IMG/VR virus record: IMGVR_UViG_3300035156_000199
Strand: one strand, 5' to 3'
Source: a virus
DNA: 43,607 nucleotides
In this document: in pieces, positions 19,114-43,607 of the stretch
How positions within the stretch are numbered: the first letter of the stretch is position 1
Layout of the letters: each line of letters begins with the position of its first letter
The notes under the pieces: model-generated
Told to the model about the DNA's origin: nothing
Seen by the model: the letters and a program-made list of their open reading frames with translations, nothing else
Databases searched by the model: none
Position numbers and translations under genes: made by a program

Positions 19114-19171
19114 AGCAGGGCTTTCCTCTCGGGTCGGGGTTGCTTCGGTAGTGGTGTTCTGAACGTCTGCC

Positions 19172-20528: not shown

Positions 20529-21785
20529 CTAGTGGTCGCTGATGTACTGAGCGAAGGTGTGCGGGCCGACGCGCGAGGGCGGGGTGTCGCAGGTGACGCA
20601 GCGGATCATGTACATCCCATCCGCTCGTGGGTCGCCGGTGAGCGCGAACGAGTGCAGTCGGGGAGGATCGAATCGATCCGGATCAGAGGCCGGTACTCCC
20701 GCCGATGCGAGGAACTCGCGAGTCGACTGGCCGTATCGCGGCGAGGACGGAGCTGGCAGAAGTGTGCCGCGGGTAATGCTGTGAGCCCGGCACCCGACGA
20801 CGACGTTCTCCGCAGTCAGAGGCCGGTAGATGTCGAGATGTACATAGACGCCCGAACTCACGACGCCCTCTACAGCCCACGAGACGCCGCACCCGCAGTA
20901 GCGGCACTGGTCGCCATCGCGCCGGCGAACCTCGGCGAGCGCGTCGCCAATCCGCTCCGCGGCCCCGTCGTGCTCGGCCGCCGACAATGGAGGGGAGGAC
21001 GCGATATTCCGAACCCCGTTACGGGCCTTCTCAAACGCCGAGGGTGCAGCCGGCGCGTCAGCAGGGGGAGCCGACGCGCCGCCTTCCTCTGCTCCTACAG
21101 TTGGGGTCATCACACCCGCACCAGACGGTGCACCAACCGAAGGAGAAGTCTCATGGCCGATCGAGATGAAGACGTCGCGCTGCCCATCAGTGCTGAGCTG
21201 ATCAAGGAGCTCACCGACCTGGCGGAGAACGCCGGACTCGAGCGCGCTATCGCTGACAGTGATGTGAAGGCTCTGGGTCTTGTCATCAGCCAACTGATCT
21301 CGTTCAACACTCGACTGCTGGTAGGCGTTGCCCGGCTTGAGGCTCAACACCTCGGAGTGCAACTGCCTGAGGTTTTCGGCGAGAGCCCGGATCCGTGGGG
21401 CGAACTGCCCGGCGTGTGACTGAGCGTCGCGGGTCGCCGCTGCAGCGGACTCCGCAGCGCACGAGCGTAGGAACTCCAGGGTGCGCTTGCCGTACACGGG
21501 ATCCGCAGGGACCGGACGAACCGCGAGCTTGCCACCCGTGGCTACTTCAGCCTCATGCTCCTGGCACGCGACGACGAAGCCATCCGATATCCACCGCCAG
21601 GAATCGACCTCCGATTGAGGAACGGCGCTGTACGTCGCGGCCAGCCCACTCTTGCGGTCGCCACCCCAGGTGACCACCGCGTTGCAGTAGCGACACTGGT
21701 CGCCGTCCCGCTCCCGGATCGCCCGGCGCACATCCGCGCGGCCCGCCAGGCCAAGCTTGTCGGAATCGAGCTTCCACGGGCTCAT
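20529..21785 (-). CDS. Immediate-early protein with two degenerate HNH-like (RDGDQCRYC) modules, 418 aa
   Basis: ATGA-coupled to the Cro/Xis-like gene. N-terminal IRERDGDQCRYCNAVVTW and C-terminal RRRDGDQCRYCGCGVSW modules are each followed by a ...YG(K/Q).T.EFL... segment. The canonical DH...N...CN..K residues are absent. Confidence 0.6.
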   Translation of the reverse strand: MSPWKLDSDKLGLAGRADVRRAIRERDGDQCRYCNAVVTWGGDRKSGLAATYSAVPQSEVDSWRWISDGFVVACQEHEAEVATGGKLAVRPVPADPVYGKRTLEFLRSCAAESAAAATRDAQSHAGQFAPRIRALAENLRQLHSEVLSLKPGNAYQQSSVERDQLADDKTQSLHITVSDSALESGVLRQVGELLDQLSTDGQRDVFISIGHETSPSVGAPSGAGVMTPTVGAEEGGASAPPADAPAAPSAFEKARNGVRNIASSPPLSAAEHDGAAERIGDALAEVRRRDGDQCRYCGCGVSWAVEGVVSSGVYVHLDIYRPLTAENVVVGCRAHSITRGTLLPAPSSPRYGQSTREFLASAGVPASDPDRFDPPRLHSFALTGDPRADGMYMIRCVTCDTPPSRVGPHTFAQYISDH

Positions 21786-22021
21786 GCCGACGCCGCCTCA
21801 GACTCGGCGGCCGTCGCGGACCCGATGCTGGCGCGCTTCACACGGAGGGCTTCGACCGCGGTTGCGTCGAACAGATAGCCGCCGCGTTTCCCCGGCAACT
21901 TCGCCAGGGGCGTGAGATCGCCGGTGTCGACCAAGCGGAGCGTGGTGCTCACGGAGAGGCCGAGAATGTTGGACGCAACACTCGTCGGCACCGCGTCAGT
22001 CTTGTTGTTTTCGTCAATCAT
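21782..22021 (-). CDS. Excisionase-family (MerR-like) HTH protein in the Cro position
   Basis: 79 aa. VASNILGLSVSTTLRLVDTGDLTPLAKLPGKRGGYLFDATAVEALR matches the HTH_17 pattern. It is divergent from the repressor, has no SD and appears leaderless. Confidence 0.65.
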   Translation of the reverse strand: MIDENNKTDAVPTSVASNILGLSVSTTLRLVDTGDLTPLAKLPGKRGGYLFDATAVEALRVKRASIGSATAAESEAASA

Positions 22022-22027
22022 GGTGCC

Positions 22028-22056
22028 AGCATGGCTAACGTTTGCGATTTAAGCAA
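22028..22056 (-). promoter_or_regulatory. Candidate leftward (lytic) promoter: -35 TTGCTT, 17-nt spacer, -10 CATGCT, 6 nt to the A of the ATG (leaderless)
   Basis: Read on the minus strand as ttgctt-aaatcgcaaacgttagc-catgct-ggcacc-ATG. Confidence 0.4.
22034..22045. promoter_or_regulatory. Candidate operator: imperfect 12-bp palindrome GCTAACGTTTGC centred on AACGTT
   Basis: It lies in the spacer of the leftward promoter. A related GCTAAACGTTC sits at 22068-22078, and a GCAAC-N7-GTTGC inverted repeat at 22053-22069 spans both -35 boxes. Confidence 0.35.
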
Positions 22057-22065
22057 CCCCGACTG

Positions 22066-22095
22066 TTGCTAAACGTTCTTCATCTGCCGTACCTT
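22066..22095 (+). promoter_or_regulatory. Candidate rightward (repressor/int) promoter: -35 TTGCTA, 18-nt spacer, -10 TACCTT, 7 nt to the ATG (leaderless)
   Basis: ttgcta-aaacgttcttcatctgccg-tacctt-tggcgtt-ATG. There is no SD upstream of the repressor ATG. Confidence 0.4.
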
Positions 22096-22102
22096 TGGCG
22101 TT

Positions 22103-22504
22103 ATGAGCACTGAGACCCATTCCAACATCAGCCAGCCCAGGCGGATTCCTGCTTGGACGATAGGTGACCGCCTCCGGAAGGCTCGAGAGGTGACCGGACT
22201 TAACCAAGCCGAGTTCGCGGCAGAGATTGACGTGTCCGCTGGGACCATCCGCAACTACGAGCTGGGCAAGGTCGAGCCGCGCCGAATCGTGCTCAAGCAG
22301 TGGGGCCTGCGCTCGGGTGTACCGCTGTATTGGCTGGTCAGGGGTATCGGAGAAAATGAAGAGTCCCCGTCAGGTGGACCTGACGGGGACTCTGGGGTGC
22401 ACCCCTCGGGACTTGAACCCGAAACCCATTGGTTAAGAGTCGTCCGGGATGCAGGGTTGAGCGTACCCGAGCGTCAGCGCGAGTTCGAACCGGCAGCAGC
22501 ATGA
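22103..22504 (+). CDS. XRE-family (CI-like) repressor, 133 aa in the viral form
   Basis: The HTH is WTIGDRLRKAREVTGLNQAEFAAEIDVSAGTIRNYELGKVEP...LYWLVRG. The C-terminal tail runs through the attP core and ends EFEPAAA. Its stop overlaps the next ATG (ATGA). Confidence 0.8.
   Translation: MSTETHSNISQPRRIPAWTIGDRLRKAREVTGLNQAEFAAEIDVSAGTIRNYELGKVEPRRIVLKQWGLRSGVPLYWLVRGIGENEESPSGGPDGDSGVHPSGLEPETHWLRVVRDAGLSVPERQREFEPAAA
22394..22440 (-). other. attP common-core candidate: 3' half of a tRNA-Lys(CUU) (anticodon loop to discriminator), not a complete tRNA
   Basis: The minus strand reads A CTCTTAA CCAAT GGGTT TCGGG TTCAAGT CCCGA GGGGTGC A. It has a perfect T-arm with a canonical T-loop, plus U33 and A37. 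No D-arm or 5' acceptor lies upstream. Confidence 0.65.
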
Positions 22505-22761
22505 GCCCGGCGAAGGAGCTCACCGCGCGCGGTGTGAAAGTACGGCTGACCCGCGCCGGCGTCGATCGCTCGAAGCTCGAGATCACCGACGTCATGCAGC
22601 GATTCCGCCACGTCGACCTCCACATGACCGGGGCGTGGAAGCGACGCAACACCGTCGTCATCACCGGGACGCGTGACGAGCGGCGGAAGGCCGACGATGT
22701 GCTTTCTTCGGCAGGCTTCTGGTGCGCGCCGTACCCGGACCGGAGCGAGTGGCACGCGTGA
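22501..22761 (+). CDS. Hypothetical protein, 86 aa, coupled to the repressor
   Basis: The ATG overlaps the repressor stop. Third-position G+C is high. It reads MSPAKELTARGVKVRLTRAGVDRSKLEITDVMQRFRHVDLHMTGAWKRRN... Confidence 0.6.
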   Translation: MSPAKELTARGVKVRLTRAGVDRSKLEITDVMQRFRHVDLHMTGAWKRRNTVVITGTRDERRKADDVLSSAGFWCAPYPDRSEWHA

Positions 22762-22865
22762 GCGGATGGACTCCGAAGGTAGTGGTCGATAACGACACGG
22801 TACGTGCGCCAATAGTGCGCAAACCCTTAGGGTTGCTTTCGGCAACCACTAAGTACCCTTCCAGA

Positions 22866-23690
22866 ATGATTCCGAAAGAGATGCCTAGTCAATGGGGTGT
22901 TCAGGTAGATCTCTGGCTGAACTGGCTTCGCGCAGCCGGGCGTCCAGCGTCCACGCTCTACCTGCGGAAGTCTCAGCTACGAAGGCTCGCCCACGCCTAT
23001 CCTCATGCCGACCCGTGGAGCCTGACACCGGACGAGCTTGCCGGCTGGATTGCCGGACAGCAATGGGACAACGACACCATCCGATCACACCGCTCGGCGC
23101 TCAGATCGTTCTACGCCTGGGGGCTGTCATCGGGCCGCACGGGAGTGAATCCCGCGCACGCGTTGCCGAGCGTGAAGGCGAAGCCGGGCAGGCCGAAACC
23201 GGCGCAGGAGGCGACATGGAAAGCGGCGATGCTCGCAGCCGACGACCGCGACGCGCTCATGATTCGCCTCGGCGCTGAAGCCGGTCTGCGCTGCTGCGAG
23301 ATCGCACAAGTGCACACGTCCCACGTCGAGCACGACCTCGTCGGCTACACGCTCAGGGTCCTTGGGAAGGGATCCAAGACGCGCATCGTGCCGCTCTCAC
23401 CACGGCTCGCGCTCGAGCTGCGCTCCAGGCCACCAGGGTGGGTGTTTCCGGGGAACATCGAGGGGCACCTCTCGTCCGCGTACGTCTCGAAGCGACTCAG
23501 CTGGGCCCTCGGCAAAGGCGTCACCGGGCACCAGCTCCGCCATCGCTTCGCTTCGGTCGCCTACAGCGCCGAGCGGGACATCAGGGCGGTGCAGGAACTG
23601 CTCGGACACTCCACGCCGGAAACCACCGCGCGATACACCGCGATACCGAACGGCGCCCTACGAGCCGCGGTGCTCGCCGCGAGCGCCTGA
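22866..23690 (+). CDS. int: Tyrosine integrase (XerC/D-like)
   Basis: Catalytic pattern: AEAGLRCCEI (R), HQLRHRFAS (H-x-x-R), LLGHSTPETTARY (H, Y). I chose the ATG 22866 start because 22760-22865 has low third-position G+C. Alternatives are the coupled GTG at 22758 or the ATG at 22881. The protein ends ...AAVLAASA. Confidence 0.85.
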   Translation: MIPKEMPSQWGVQVDLWLNWLRAAGRPASTLYLRKSQLRRLAHAYPHADPWSLTPDELAGWIAGQQWDNDTIRSHRSALRSFYAWGLSSGRTGVNPAHALPSVKAKPGRPKPAQEATWKAAMLAADDRDALMIRLGAEAGLRCCEIAQVHTSHVEHDLVGYTLRVLGKGSKTRIVPLSPRLALELRSRPPGWVFPGNIEGHLSSAYVSKRLSWALGKGVTGHQLRHRFASVAYSAERDIRAVQELLGHSTPETTARYTAIPNGALRAAVLAASA

Positions 23691-28606: not shown

Positions 28607-29125
28607 TCAGGCTCCTGTCAGGTAGATGCCGGGGTTGGCTGGGTCCTCGAGGAGGCCCGAGCCGGTGGTGAGGTACATGCCGGGGTTTGCAGTGTCAGCG
28701 ACGAGACCGCCGGTCCCACCCCCACCGCCGCCCCCGCTCGCGATGAGGGTCTGCACCTGCTGAAGGGAGTCACCGGCGCTCAGCGCCGCCTGCTGCGCGG
28801 CAAAGAGCGCCGCGGCGACGGCCTGGTCCTTCGCGTCCTGCGAGTCCCGGCGAAACACGAAGGACCCGGACTTCCAGTTGTGCGCGAAGTTCGGTGACAC
28901 GACGTACACGTCGGGAAGGATCGGCAGGGCGCCGACGGGAACTCCGGTCGCGGTCTGACCTGCGGGTGTCTTGATCGTCAGCGGCGTCGTGAACGCTGTA
29001 TCCGCGATCTCGTACACCTGGTAGGTGGCATTCGGGGTAACGATGGGGCGCACCACACCGTCGCTGCCGATCGACGCGGCGTCGCCGGCGGCGATACCCG
29101 GGTAGAAAGCTTCTCCTGCAGCCAT
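28607..29125 (-). CDS. Minor tail/fibre protein, 172 aa
   Basis: It has a poly-Gly stretch. The repeated DTANPGMYLT / DPANPGIYLT motifs are typical of actinophage minor tail proteins. Confidence 0.55.
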   Translation of the reverse strand: MAAGEAFYPGIAAGDAASIGSDGVVRPIVTPNATYQVYEIADTAFTTPLTIKTPAGQTATGVPVGALPILPDVYVVSPNFAHNWKSGSFVFRRDSQDAKDQAVAAALFAAQQAALSAGDSLQQVQTLIASGGGGGGGTGGLVADTANPGMYLTTGSGLLEDPANPGIYLTGA

Positions 29126-43337: not shown

Positions 43338-43607
43338 CAGTACCGCCCCTCCTTGTGCCGGAAGATCTGGTCGAAGCCGCCCGAACGCGGGAACGAACCG
43401 CGAGGGATAGGCCCGCCGCCGCCTGGTTCGAAGACCTTGACCATCCAGTCTTCGAAAGCGATCAGCTGTTGACGTCCCGCCTGAAGAGTGACCGCCTGTG
43501 ACAGGGGCCCCCGGGTCTCCGACCACGACCTGGCGCCACGGACAGGAGCGCCGTCGACGATGCCGAGGACCATCTGTACGACGACGTCGCTGACGTTCTC
43601 CATGGAC
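43337..43607 (-). CDS. Head-tail connector (gp6-like), C-terminal part of the junction-spanning ORF (see 1-285)
   Basis: ...VTLQAGRQQLIAFEDWMVKVFEPGGGGPIPRGSFPRSGGFDQIFRHKEGRY*. Nt 43481-43607 duplicate nt 1-127. Confidence 0.55.
   Translation of the reverse strand, partial: SMENVSDVVVQMVLGIVDGAPVRGARSWSETRGPLSQAVTLQAGRQQLIAFEDWMVKVFEPGGGGPIPRGSFPRSGGFDQIFRHKEGRY
43481..43607. repeat. Terminal overlap copy 2 (identical to 1-127)
   Basis: Exact 127-nt identity with the window start. Confidence 0.97.

Follow-up and report, generated by a model that had tools for sequence, protein, structure and literature searches.

The IMG/VR virus record IMGVR_UViG_3300035156_000199 (43,607 nt; this whole stretch of DNA is referred to here as the window) contains the 3′ half of a lysine tRNA gene lying antisense within the open reading frame (ORF) of a putative immunity repressor. 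This arrangement raises the question of whether the tRNA segment is a phage attachment site (attP) and, if so, whether recombination with the host tRNA gene (attB) alters the repressor and, hence, immunity. Our analyses indicated that the locus is very probably an integration-dependent immunity cassette of the type found in mycobacteriophage BPs, carried by the complete genome of a free phage. Membership of this family was supported by the tRNA match, the gene order, homology to BPs proteins, the occurrence of the repressor family in two forms and the products of in silico integration. No new mechanism is involved: a previous sequence-only reading had presented the tRNA-Lys target and an extra ORF between the repressor (rep) and integrase (int) genes as departures from known systems, and both are already on record for phage GMA5 and Cluster CW (PMC5559632). 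The features central to the argument are the following.

22103 to 22504, plus strand: viral-form immunity repressor, 133 amino acids (aa), with an HTH_19 domain, a linker encoding a hairpin, the peptide VHPSGLEPETHWLRV encoded by the tRNA block and the C-terminal tail ...EFEPAAA
22398 to 22441, minus strand: putative attP common core, tRNA-Lys(CTT) positions 30 to 73, with 43/44 identity to Micrococcaceae genes
22430 to 22432, plus strand: repressor codon 110, TGG (Trp), which the host base would make TGA
22433 to 22501, plus strand: part of the ORF that reconstructed integration splits off, residues 111 to 133, ending ...VVRDAGLSVPERQREFEPAAA, a putative C-terminal degradation tag
22360 to 22393, minus strand: hairpin with a perfect 15-bp stem and a T-rich tail, directly after the tRNA discriminator and within the repressor linker
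22866 to 23690, plus strand: armless tyrosine integrase, 274 aa (Pfam Phage_integrase, 3.4e-17), ending ...AAVLAASA

The putative attP block and the host tRNA-Lys gene

The minus strand of 22398 to 22441 reads GACTCTTAACCAATGGGTTTCGGGTTCAAGTCCCGAGGGGTGCA, that is, GACTCTTAA-C-CAATGGGTTTCGGGTTCAAGTCCCGAGGGGTGCA, and 43 of these 44 bases matched the commonest tRNA-Lys(CTT) gene of Arthrobacter and other Micrococcaceae (GCACCTCTAGCTCAATTGGCAGAGCAATTGACTCTTAATCAATGGGTTTCGGGTTCAAGTCCCGAGGGGTGCA). From 5′ to 3′, the block comprises the final two bases on the 5′ side of the anticodon stem, the anticodon loop with CUU, the 3′ stem strand, the variable loop, the T-arm, the 3′ acceptor strand and the discriminator. 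This match is far above chance. Matches of 43/44 were found in approximately 45 genomes of Arthrobacter, Paeniglutamicibacter and other Micrococcaceae, and a 25-nt pattern from the T-arm and acceptor detected 64 loci in species-representative genomes, nearly all of them in the same groups. The sequence-only reading depended on a host tRNA sharing this 3′ half, and such a tRNA exists. The tRNA string that it quoted is present on the minus strand, and its recognition of a tRNA block was sound; the limits that it gave, 22394 to 22440, had to be moved to those above, as 22394 to 22397 reads CCCC and not CCA. Its statement that the 5′ half of the tRNA is missing held except for G30 and A31 of the 5′ anticodon-stem strand. 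Similarly, the placement within the repressor was correct but the limits were not, with the block occupying codons 99 to 113 (VHPSGLEPETHWLRV), antisense to the tRNA, rather than codons ∼98 to 113, and the HTH_19 domain covering residues 21 to 84 rather than ending near residue 80. The predicted absence of an intact tRNA was borne out by ARAGORN, which reported 0 genes in the whole window. The Rfam tRNA model gave 16.5 bits against a threshold of 29, as expected for half a tRNA, and a complete cloverleaf is not formed: only tRNA positions 30 to 73 are present and there is no D-arm.

The sole mismatch between attP and attB is located at window position 22432, corresponding to tRNA position 39, where the phage has a C and the host a T on the tRNA strand. 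This position is the third base of repressor codon 110, which is TGG (Trp110) in the phage and becomes TGA with the host base; in the repressor frame, host tRNA-Lys genes read ...VHPSGLEPETH*. The viral frame is open through the tRNA block because 22432 has changed this TGA to TGG. Identity to the host tRNA picked up again for 9 nt beyond the mismatch (GACTCTTAA, 22433 to 22441), which is not expected by chance. A stop-destroying change was detected in each homologous system examined, namely, TAA to TTA in GMA5, deletion of TAA in GRU3, TGA to TGG in Brevibacterium phage AGM1 as in the window, and TGA to TGT in BPs.

Homology to BPs and organization of the cassette

The repressor is of the XRE type, with residues 21 to 84 matching Pfam HTH_19 (1.1e-9) and HTH_3. 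Pairwise alignment with BPs gp33 gave 39% identity over 113 aa, with inclusion of the tRNA-encoded peptide (E value, 2e-19), and the AGM1 protein annotated as an immunity repressor was 45% identical; further homologues were present in the protein collection (P0002 to P0013). The integrase exhibited 41% identity over 281 aa to residues 56 to 334 of BPs gp32 (pairwise E value, 8e-59) and 42 to 45% identity to the integrases of Cluster CW, Rabbs and Sneeze. The motifs GLR, KGxK, HxxR, GHS and RY could be read in its sequence. Alignment to BPs Int starts from residue 56 of the latter, and the protein has no N-terminal arm-binding domain. Its C terminus, ...AAVLAASA, is a candidate degradation signal and resembles those of relatives (...LAAVAA, ...LAASIVA and ...LAAAIVA). 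The description in the sequence-only reading of a co-oriented integrase ending ...LAASA and of a coupled ORF at 22501 to 22761 was accurate.

The cassette consists of a helix-turn-helix (HTH) gene on the minus strand (21782 to 22021), an 81-bp spacer, and rep (22103 to 22504) and int (22866 to 23690) on the plus strand. This is the compact BPs-type layout, in which rep precedes int in the same orientation, with a short control region and a divergent small gene on its other side; the layout is varied in the window by an 86-aa ORF that separates the two genes, and GMA5 likewise has an ORF at this place.

The window represents a complete free phage genome of ∼43.5 kb (∼43,480 bp) from a circular assembly and not a prophage. 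An exact direct repeat of 127 nt is present at its ends (1 to 127 and 43481 to 43607), indicating a circular, nonintegrated genome, in keeping with the long form of the repressor. This phage was also present in ENA samples ERZ27253086 and ERZ27253112, and the cassette sequence was unchanged across independent metagenome assemblies.

Two forms of the repressor within the family

A family survey of 80 IMG/VR loci plus the window contained two classes of repressor.

31 loci, window included: integrase downstream, mean length of 139 aa, 29 ending in Ala and 15 in Ala-Ala
37 loci: repressor with its stop within an intact tRNA on the opposite strand or with its end precisely at the edge of the provirus, mean length of 114 aa, no integrase downstream

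The tRNAs of the short class were Arg-ACG, Arg-TCT, Asn-GTT and Lys-CTT. Among unique viral-form tails, 26/28 ended in Ala and 15/28 in Ala-Ala, compared to 17/79 and 3/79 in a background of 79 proxy genes of the window phage (P values of ∼1e-15 and ∼1e-14, respectively). A real junction was observed in a relative (locus L002), where the repressor stops at a TAG within an intact tRNA-Arg(TCT), immediately beyond which are host genes. Two proviruses, L091 and L105, have repressors ending ...GLEPRTH* at a TGA formed from T39-C40-A41 of tRNA-Lys, which is the form predicted for the window phage. Going by the homology to BPs and by these statistics, the viral tail ...EFEPAAA is a putative degradation tag, the 133-aa viral form would be inactive and immunity would depend on integration.

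The hairpin at 22360 to 22393 has a predicted energy of −31.2 kcal/mol (z = −6.1) and was the only terminator-like site in 21700 to 23000. A T-arm was detectable in the 3′ part of the repressor gene in 57/81 family loci, and 33/50 unique family members had a hairpin with a z score of < −2 following the T-arm. The hairpin appears to be a terminator supplied by the phage for the rebuilt tRNA, and recurrent GGPDG-like peptides and a low GC content at third codon positions (GC3) are found in the linker because the hairpin is encoded there. It may have been copied from the terminator of a host tRNA-Lys gene, as it resembles to some degree those of the Arthrobacter agilis group, but hairpins follow all kinds of tRNA fragments in the family.

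Predicted outcome of integration

Reconstruction of attL in silico with an Arthrobacter attB gave two possible products. An exchange 3′ of position 39 produced a 109-aa repressor (...EPETH*), truncated at His109 by the tRNA-templated TGA with removal of 24 residues, while an exchange in the anticodon loop produced a 118-aa repressor (...HWLRVNCSAN*), whose last six residues, VNCSAN, are read from the host-derived 5′ half of the tRNA, the V being the same as in the viral form. Both reconstructed forms (109 and 118 aa versus 133 aa) lose the tail ...EFEPAAA. The sequence-only reading had proposed that integration exchanges the last ∼20 residues for host sequence. Loss of the tail was upheld, and truncation at His109 is the most likely form that it would take, host-read residues being found only in the 118-aa product. 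The proposal that integration parts int from the repressor promoter agreed with the in silico prophage, in which int and the 86-aa ORF were moved to the other end.

The 109-aa outcome is the likely one, as the published BPs and Cluster CW cores lie 3′ of the stop-destroying change; it would also rebuild a perfect tRNA. For the prophage to regain the stop, the exchange must be located 3′ of that change, and the exact position is, in this respect, set by analogy. The predicted attL is GCAGAGCAATTGACTCTTAA(T/C)CAATGGG... joined to the hairpin AGAGTCCCCGTCAGG, and the predicted attR is ...CCCGGACGACTCTTAA(T/C)CAATGGG...GGGGTGCA joined to host sequence downstream of tRNA-Lys.

The proposed switch would operate as follows. 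In the free phage, the repressor would be read through the tRNA block since base 22432 turns the tRNA-templated TGA into TGG, and the resulting 133-aa product, with its Ala-rich tail ...EFEPAAA, would be marked for proteolysis; the 86-aa ORF and the integrase would be expressed from one unit with the repressor. The integrase would recombine 22398 to 22441 with the host tRNA-Lys gene, presumably with an exchange 3′ of position 39 as in BPs and Cluster CW. The repressor-bearing junction would thereby gain the host T39 and a stop codon, TGA, after His109 (...GLEPETH*), the tRNA would be rebuilt perfectly and terminated by the phage hairpin at 22360 to 22393, and the tail, the small ORF and int would end up ∼43 kb from the repressor promoter, at the other end of the prophage. 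The short repressor would be stable and would maintain immunity.

Alternative explanations

Several observations weigh against this interpretation. No attL or attR of the window phage or a close relative, and no repressor-like ORF reading into the tRNA, was found among 76 tRNA-Lys copies from species-representative genomes, so that the prophage junctions anticipated by the sequence-only reading were not recovered there for the window phage, and no truncated repressor form of this phage was present in a collection of 15 billion proteins. A scan of JGI metagenomes detected neither an attL of the anticodon-loop type nor a host variant with C39; a JGI scan for the junction of tRNA end and hairpin was likewise empty but also missed the contig of the window itself, making this collection uninformative here. 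The exact 42-nt phage core had 0 matches among 185,579 species-representative genomes, and a 39-nt core had no match in IMG/VR, the exact-core searches being empty because of the single mismatch at tRNA position 39. That mismatch is inside the core, and its tolerance during recombination has to be assumed. The codon-position GC content of the tail region is atypical, such that translation of the tail is argued from the open frame and conservation in the family. Finally, AGM1 indicates that modules of this type can persist in a decayed, nonintegrating state.

These points bear most directly on an explanation in which the cassette is a decaying relic, with a tRNA fragment derived from an ancestral attP or from imprecise excision, and neither integration nor integration-controlled immunity occurs now, as seems true of AGM1. 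In AGM1, the layout is the same, the integrase is a fragment of 65 aa and the repressor terminates in ...VDAK and lacks the Ala-Ala end, and a relic would fit both the failure to find lysogens of the window phage in any search and the mismatch within the core. The integrase of the window is, however, full length, retains every catalytic motif and can be aligned with BPs Int from one end to the other; the repressor frame stays open right up to the ATGA overlap, with AAA as its C terminus; the single mismatch is precisely the change that opens the frame; and independent metagenome assemblies contained the same sequence without differences. Decay was, therefore, considered improbable. Even more remote is a role for the tRNA-like segment as an RNA, either tRNA-like or a minihelix on an antisense transcript, instead of as a recombination site. 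On the minus strand, the sequence GCATCCC (22446 to 22452) is located upstream of the tRNA fragment and can pair with the 3′ strand of the acceptor, yielding sub-threshold Rfam matches, with 16.5 bits for tRNA and 21.7 bits for mascRNA. This pairing is probably due to chance, and GCATCCC was rejected as the pseudo-acceptor strand of a tRNA-like RNA, being absent from AGM1 and with all of the Rfam matches falling below their gathering scores. In addition, there is no D-arm, the 5′ side of the anticodon stem is represented by two bases only and the segment matches a host gene, as expected of an attP.

A less probable version of the same switch, to which some weight should still be given, places the exchange in the anticodon loop, within the 9-bp GACTCTTAA (22433 to 22441), which precedes the mismatch in the 5′-to-3′ direction of the tRNA. 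TGG would be retained in such a prophage, the repressor would be the 118-aa form and the rebuilt tRNA-Lys would have an A31-C39 mismatch. This version would account for the 9 nt of renewed host identity past the mismatch, which would not be expected by chance; exchange in the anticodon loop before the first mismatch has been described for other actinophages (PMC10865867); and an imperfect tRNA might be tolerated, as many Arthrobacter genomes have two or three tRNA-Lys(CTT) copies. Against this are the cores of the homologous systems, which begin only after the stop-destroying change (C40 in BPs and ∼A38 in Cluster CW), the natural tRNA-Lys proviruses L091 and L105, which end at TGA, and the empty junction scan of the JGI metagenomes. 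An exchange 3′ of position 39 with a 109-aa repressor remains the preferred outcome. A general design rule can be put forward tentatively, in which the antisense of the tRNA anticodon stem or loop templates the prophage stop and the viral frame has been opened, lineage by lineage, with a minimal edit of that codon. Depending on the side of the edit on which recombination took place, two kinds of lysogen could then arise in the window phage, one with 109 aa and a perfect tRNA and the other with 118 aa and an A31-C39 tRNA-Lys, and the slot between rep and int would provide for accessory expression only before integration.

Probable host

The terminase of the window phage shared ∼70% identity with its counterparts in phages of Arthrobacter globiformis. 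As the tRNA-Lys matches and the terminase similarity agree, the phage most likely infects a species of Arthrobacter or a relative within the Micrococcaceae. In Pseudarthrobacter sp. PS3-L1 (locus L019, 4800 to 4833), a partial tRNA-Lys, with identity running from position 40 through the 3′ end, abuts a different prophage with an M23 peptidase lysin nearby and neither int nor rep at the tRNA end; position 39 is an A, so that TGA is avoided there too. This junction indicates that tRNA-Lys also serves as an attB for unrelated phages of Micrococcaceae. Arthrobacter-type tRNA-Lys(CTT) genes were also encountered in a Vibrio cholerae 35D contig (L060), in Sporosarcina (L051) and in a metagenome-assembled genome (MAG) of Acidobacteria (L042). 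The flanks of the L060 tRNA were identical to those in an Arthrobacter MAG (L014), and all three are probably contaminant contigs in public assemblies.

Small ORF, divergent gene and control regions

The remaining features of the cassette are the following.

22501 to 22761, plus strand: accessory ORF, 86 aa, with an ATGA overlap with rep and predicted translational coupling
21782 to 22021, minus strand: divergent HTH gene, 79 aa (Pfam HTH_17, E value of 1.2e-4, 22.7 bits, below the 27-bit cutoff)
22022 to 22102, no strand assigned: control region, 81 bp, with an inverted repeat, TTAAGCAAC-N7-GTTGCTAAA, at 22049 to 22073 as candidate operator
22762 to 22865, no strand assigned: low-GC spacer, 104 nt, upstream of int, with a palindrome, GGGTTGCTTTCGGCAAC, at 22830 to 22846 that shares AAGCAACCC
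22051 to 22059 (plus), 22830 to 22838 (minus) and 19137 to 19145 (minus): copies of AAGCAACCC, all in regulatory positions

The 86-aa ORF is probably a real gene, as its GC3 (0.86) is similar to that of the terminase (0.88). Only two homologues were detected in a large protein collection, P0018, which sits between rep and int in L157, and P0019, which has an unrelated context in L158. The family is, hence, very rare, being observed in only three actinophage-like contigs, with the pattern LTARGV..LTRAGVD...APYPD..EW and a predicted structure of a helix, four strands and a helix. Nothing usable on function was obtained from Pfam, PHROGs, NCBIfam, AlphaFold (AF2 pLDDT of 67) or Foldseek against the PDB. 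The length of BPs Int (398 aa) suggested that this ORF might be an arm-binding domain split off from Int, an idea that was rejected given the absence of similarity to BPs Int, the C-terminal location of the extra length in BPs and the unrelated context of P0019. A single family comprising the ORFs in the rep-int slots of the window, GMA5, AGM1, L006 and L007 was also rejected, as there was no pairwise similarity and the PHROG matches differed or were lacking. The 86-aa ORF is most plausibly an accessory gene that occupies a permissive site, not a conserved part of the switch; judging from its location, it would be coexpressed with the repressor until integration but not afterward.

The divergent 79-aa gene has a GC3 of 0.81 and occupies the position of the cro-like gene in BPs-type cassettes; L002, L005 and L006 have HTH_17 genes in the corresponding place. 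Its weak, sub-cutoff HTH_17 match is excisionase-like and the AGM1 counterpart is annotated as an excisionase, but homology to BPs Cro (gp34) or AGM1 Xis (gp34) was rejected as no similarity was detectable. The HTH gene is adjoined by a 418-aa ORF on the minus strand (20529 to 21785) that had no Pfam match and contains the motif RDGDQCRYC...W twice (residues ∼25 to 40 and ∼300 to 315), which suggests a duplicated Cys-containing HNH- or zinc-finger-like module.

No Escherichia coli-type promoter was called in the control region at 22022 to 22102. The 9-mer AAGCAACCC occurred three times in the window compared to an expected 0.09, and 0/100 shuffles reached three copies. These copies are located in the inverted repeat between rep and the HTH gene, in the palindrome that precedes int and ∼25 nt before the start of a ParB-like gene, and the 9-mer is a candidate half-site for the repressor, similar to the multiple operators of BPs gp33. 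The spacer at 22762 to 22865 is a possible separate control region for int.

Comparison with known systems

Integration-dependent immunity has been recorded for mycobacteriophages of Clusters G, I, N and P, for Bifidobacterium prophages and for Streptomyces Cluster BC. The Arthrobacter phage Galaxy was described as "reminiscent" of such a system but without tags or an attP in the repressor (PMC5513430), and this statement was the only one found for Arthrobacter phages in the literature searched. In the Arthrobacter phage Cole (L076, ON392166; 1961 to 4163), we observed a tyrosine integrase, an intact tRNA-Arg(TCT), an 81-aa HTH protein resembling the N-terminal 81 residues of the window repressor and a second, convergent tyrosine integrase that overlaps the gene of this HTH protein by 4 bp; phages of the Cole type are the nearest isolated relatives by terminase. 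Ordinary tRNA-targeting temperate phages with a lambda-like tyrosine integrase share with the window an attP that carries the 3′ half of a tRNA and rebuilds the gene. They differ in that attP is intergenic and next to int, Int has an arm-binding domain, Xis is separate and immunity is independent of integration.

Brevibacterium phage AGM1 (MN023176) has the same arrangement of genes, comprising an Xis-like gp34, the immunity repressor gp33, a small ORF (gp32) that overlaps rep by 4 bp and the integrase gp31. It also carries the 3′ part of tRNA-Lys with C39 (TGG, Trp), a compensatory T-stem pair and a hairpin after the tRNA end. In contrast to the window, the integrase is a 65-aa fragment, the repressor ends ...VDAK and the small ORF is unrelated, and the AGM1 module appears to be inactivated. 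The decayed cassette was observed in AGM1 (L001, 2698 to 3613) and ∼30 sibling phages; the literature searched contained nothing on AGM1 and no mention of its ancestry in integration-dependent immunity.

The closest isolated integrases (∼45% identity) are those of the Cluster CW phages (GMA5, GRU3, Jeanie and McGonagall), whose repressors belong to the same family and end ...GAAA or ...VTAA. These phages share a 37-bp attP within rep that matches a tRNA-Lys gene, and in GMA5 the integrase and repressor genes are separated by a further ORF (Pope et al. 2017, PMC5559632). This ORF has the same 4-bp overlap as that of the window but encodes an unrelated HTH protein. Cluster CW differs from the window in its genome size (∼17 kb), in its host (Gordonia) and in the frame used across the tRNA, the templated stop being a TAA in the anticodon loop that has been removed by a change to TTA (GMA5) or by deletion (GRU3). 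The 37-bp core starts at ∼A38.

BPs (mycobacteriophage Cluster G), with int, rep and cro as genes 32, 33 and 34, is the experimentally defined prototype of integration-dependent immunity (Broussard et al. 2013; PMC3694055, PMC4557955), and its attP is annotated at 29014 to 29055, inside gene 33. Relative to tRNA-Arg(ACG), BPs has an A instead of a T at position 39, changing TGA to TGT (Cys104), and the annotated core begins with the next base. Cys104 is the residue just past the end of the prophage form, gp33^103 (PMC4557955). In our alignment, F103 and C104 of BPs correspond to H109 and W110 of the window, such that position 39 is altered to a sense codon in both (TGT and TGG, respectively) and the prophage form, as predicted for the window, ends at the aligned residue. 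The two systems also have in common homologous Rep (39%) and Int (41%) proteins, an attP derived from the 3′ part of a tRNA and antisense within rep, a rep gene upstream of and co-oriented with an armless int, a divergent small gene and Ala-rich C termini. They differ in the target, a tRNA-Arg of Mycobacterium in BPs and tRNA-Lys(CTT) of Micrococcaceae in the window; in the connection of rep to int, a 4-bp overlap compared to the 86-aa ORF and 104-nt spacer; and in the ∼64-aa C-terminal extension of annotated gp32, which is absent from the window Int. Furthermore, tRNA identity resumes for 9 nt past the altered base in the window, the divergent gene is unlike gp34, and integration and immunity are experimental findings for BPs while the window is known from its sequence.

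The window would add a phage with an Arthrobacter-type host to those using this unusual and well-characterized lysis/lysogeny switch, in a host group where such switches are poorly documented, and would provide a precise attP/attB pair for integration vectors in Micrococcaceae. The insight is incremental, but the stop-codon edit offers a compact rule for spotting systems of this type in metagenomes: comparison of BPs, Cluster CW, AGM1 and the window indicates that the prophage stop comes from the antisense of the tRNA and that the viral frame is opened by an edit of one codon.

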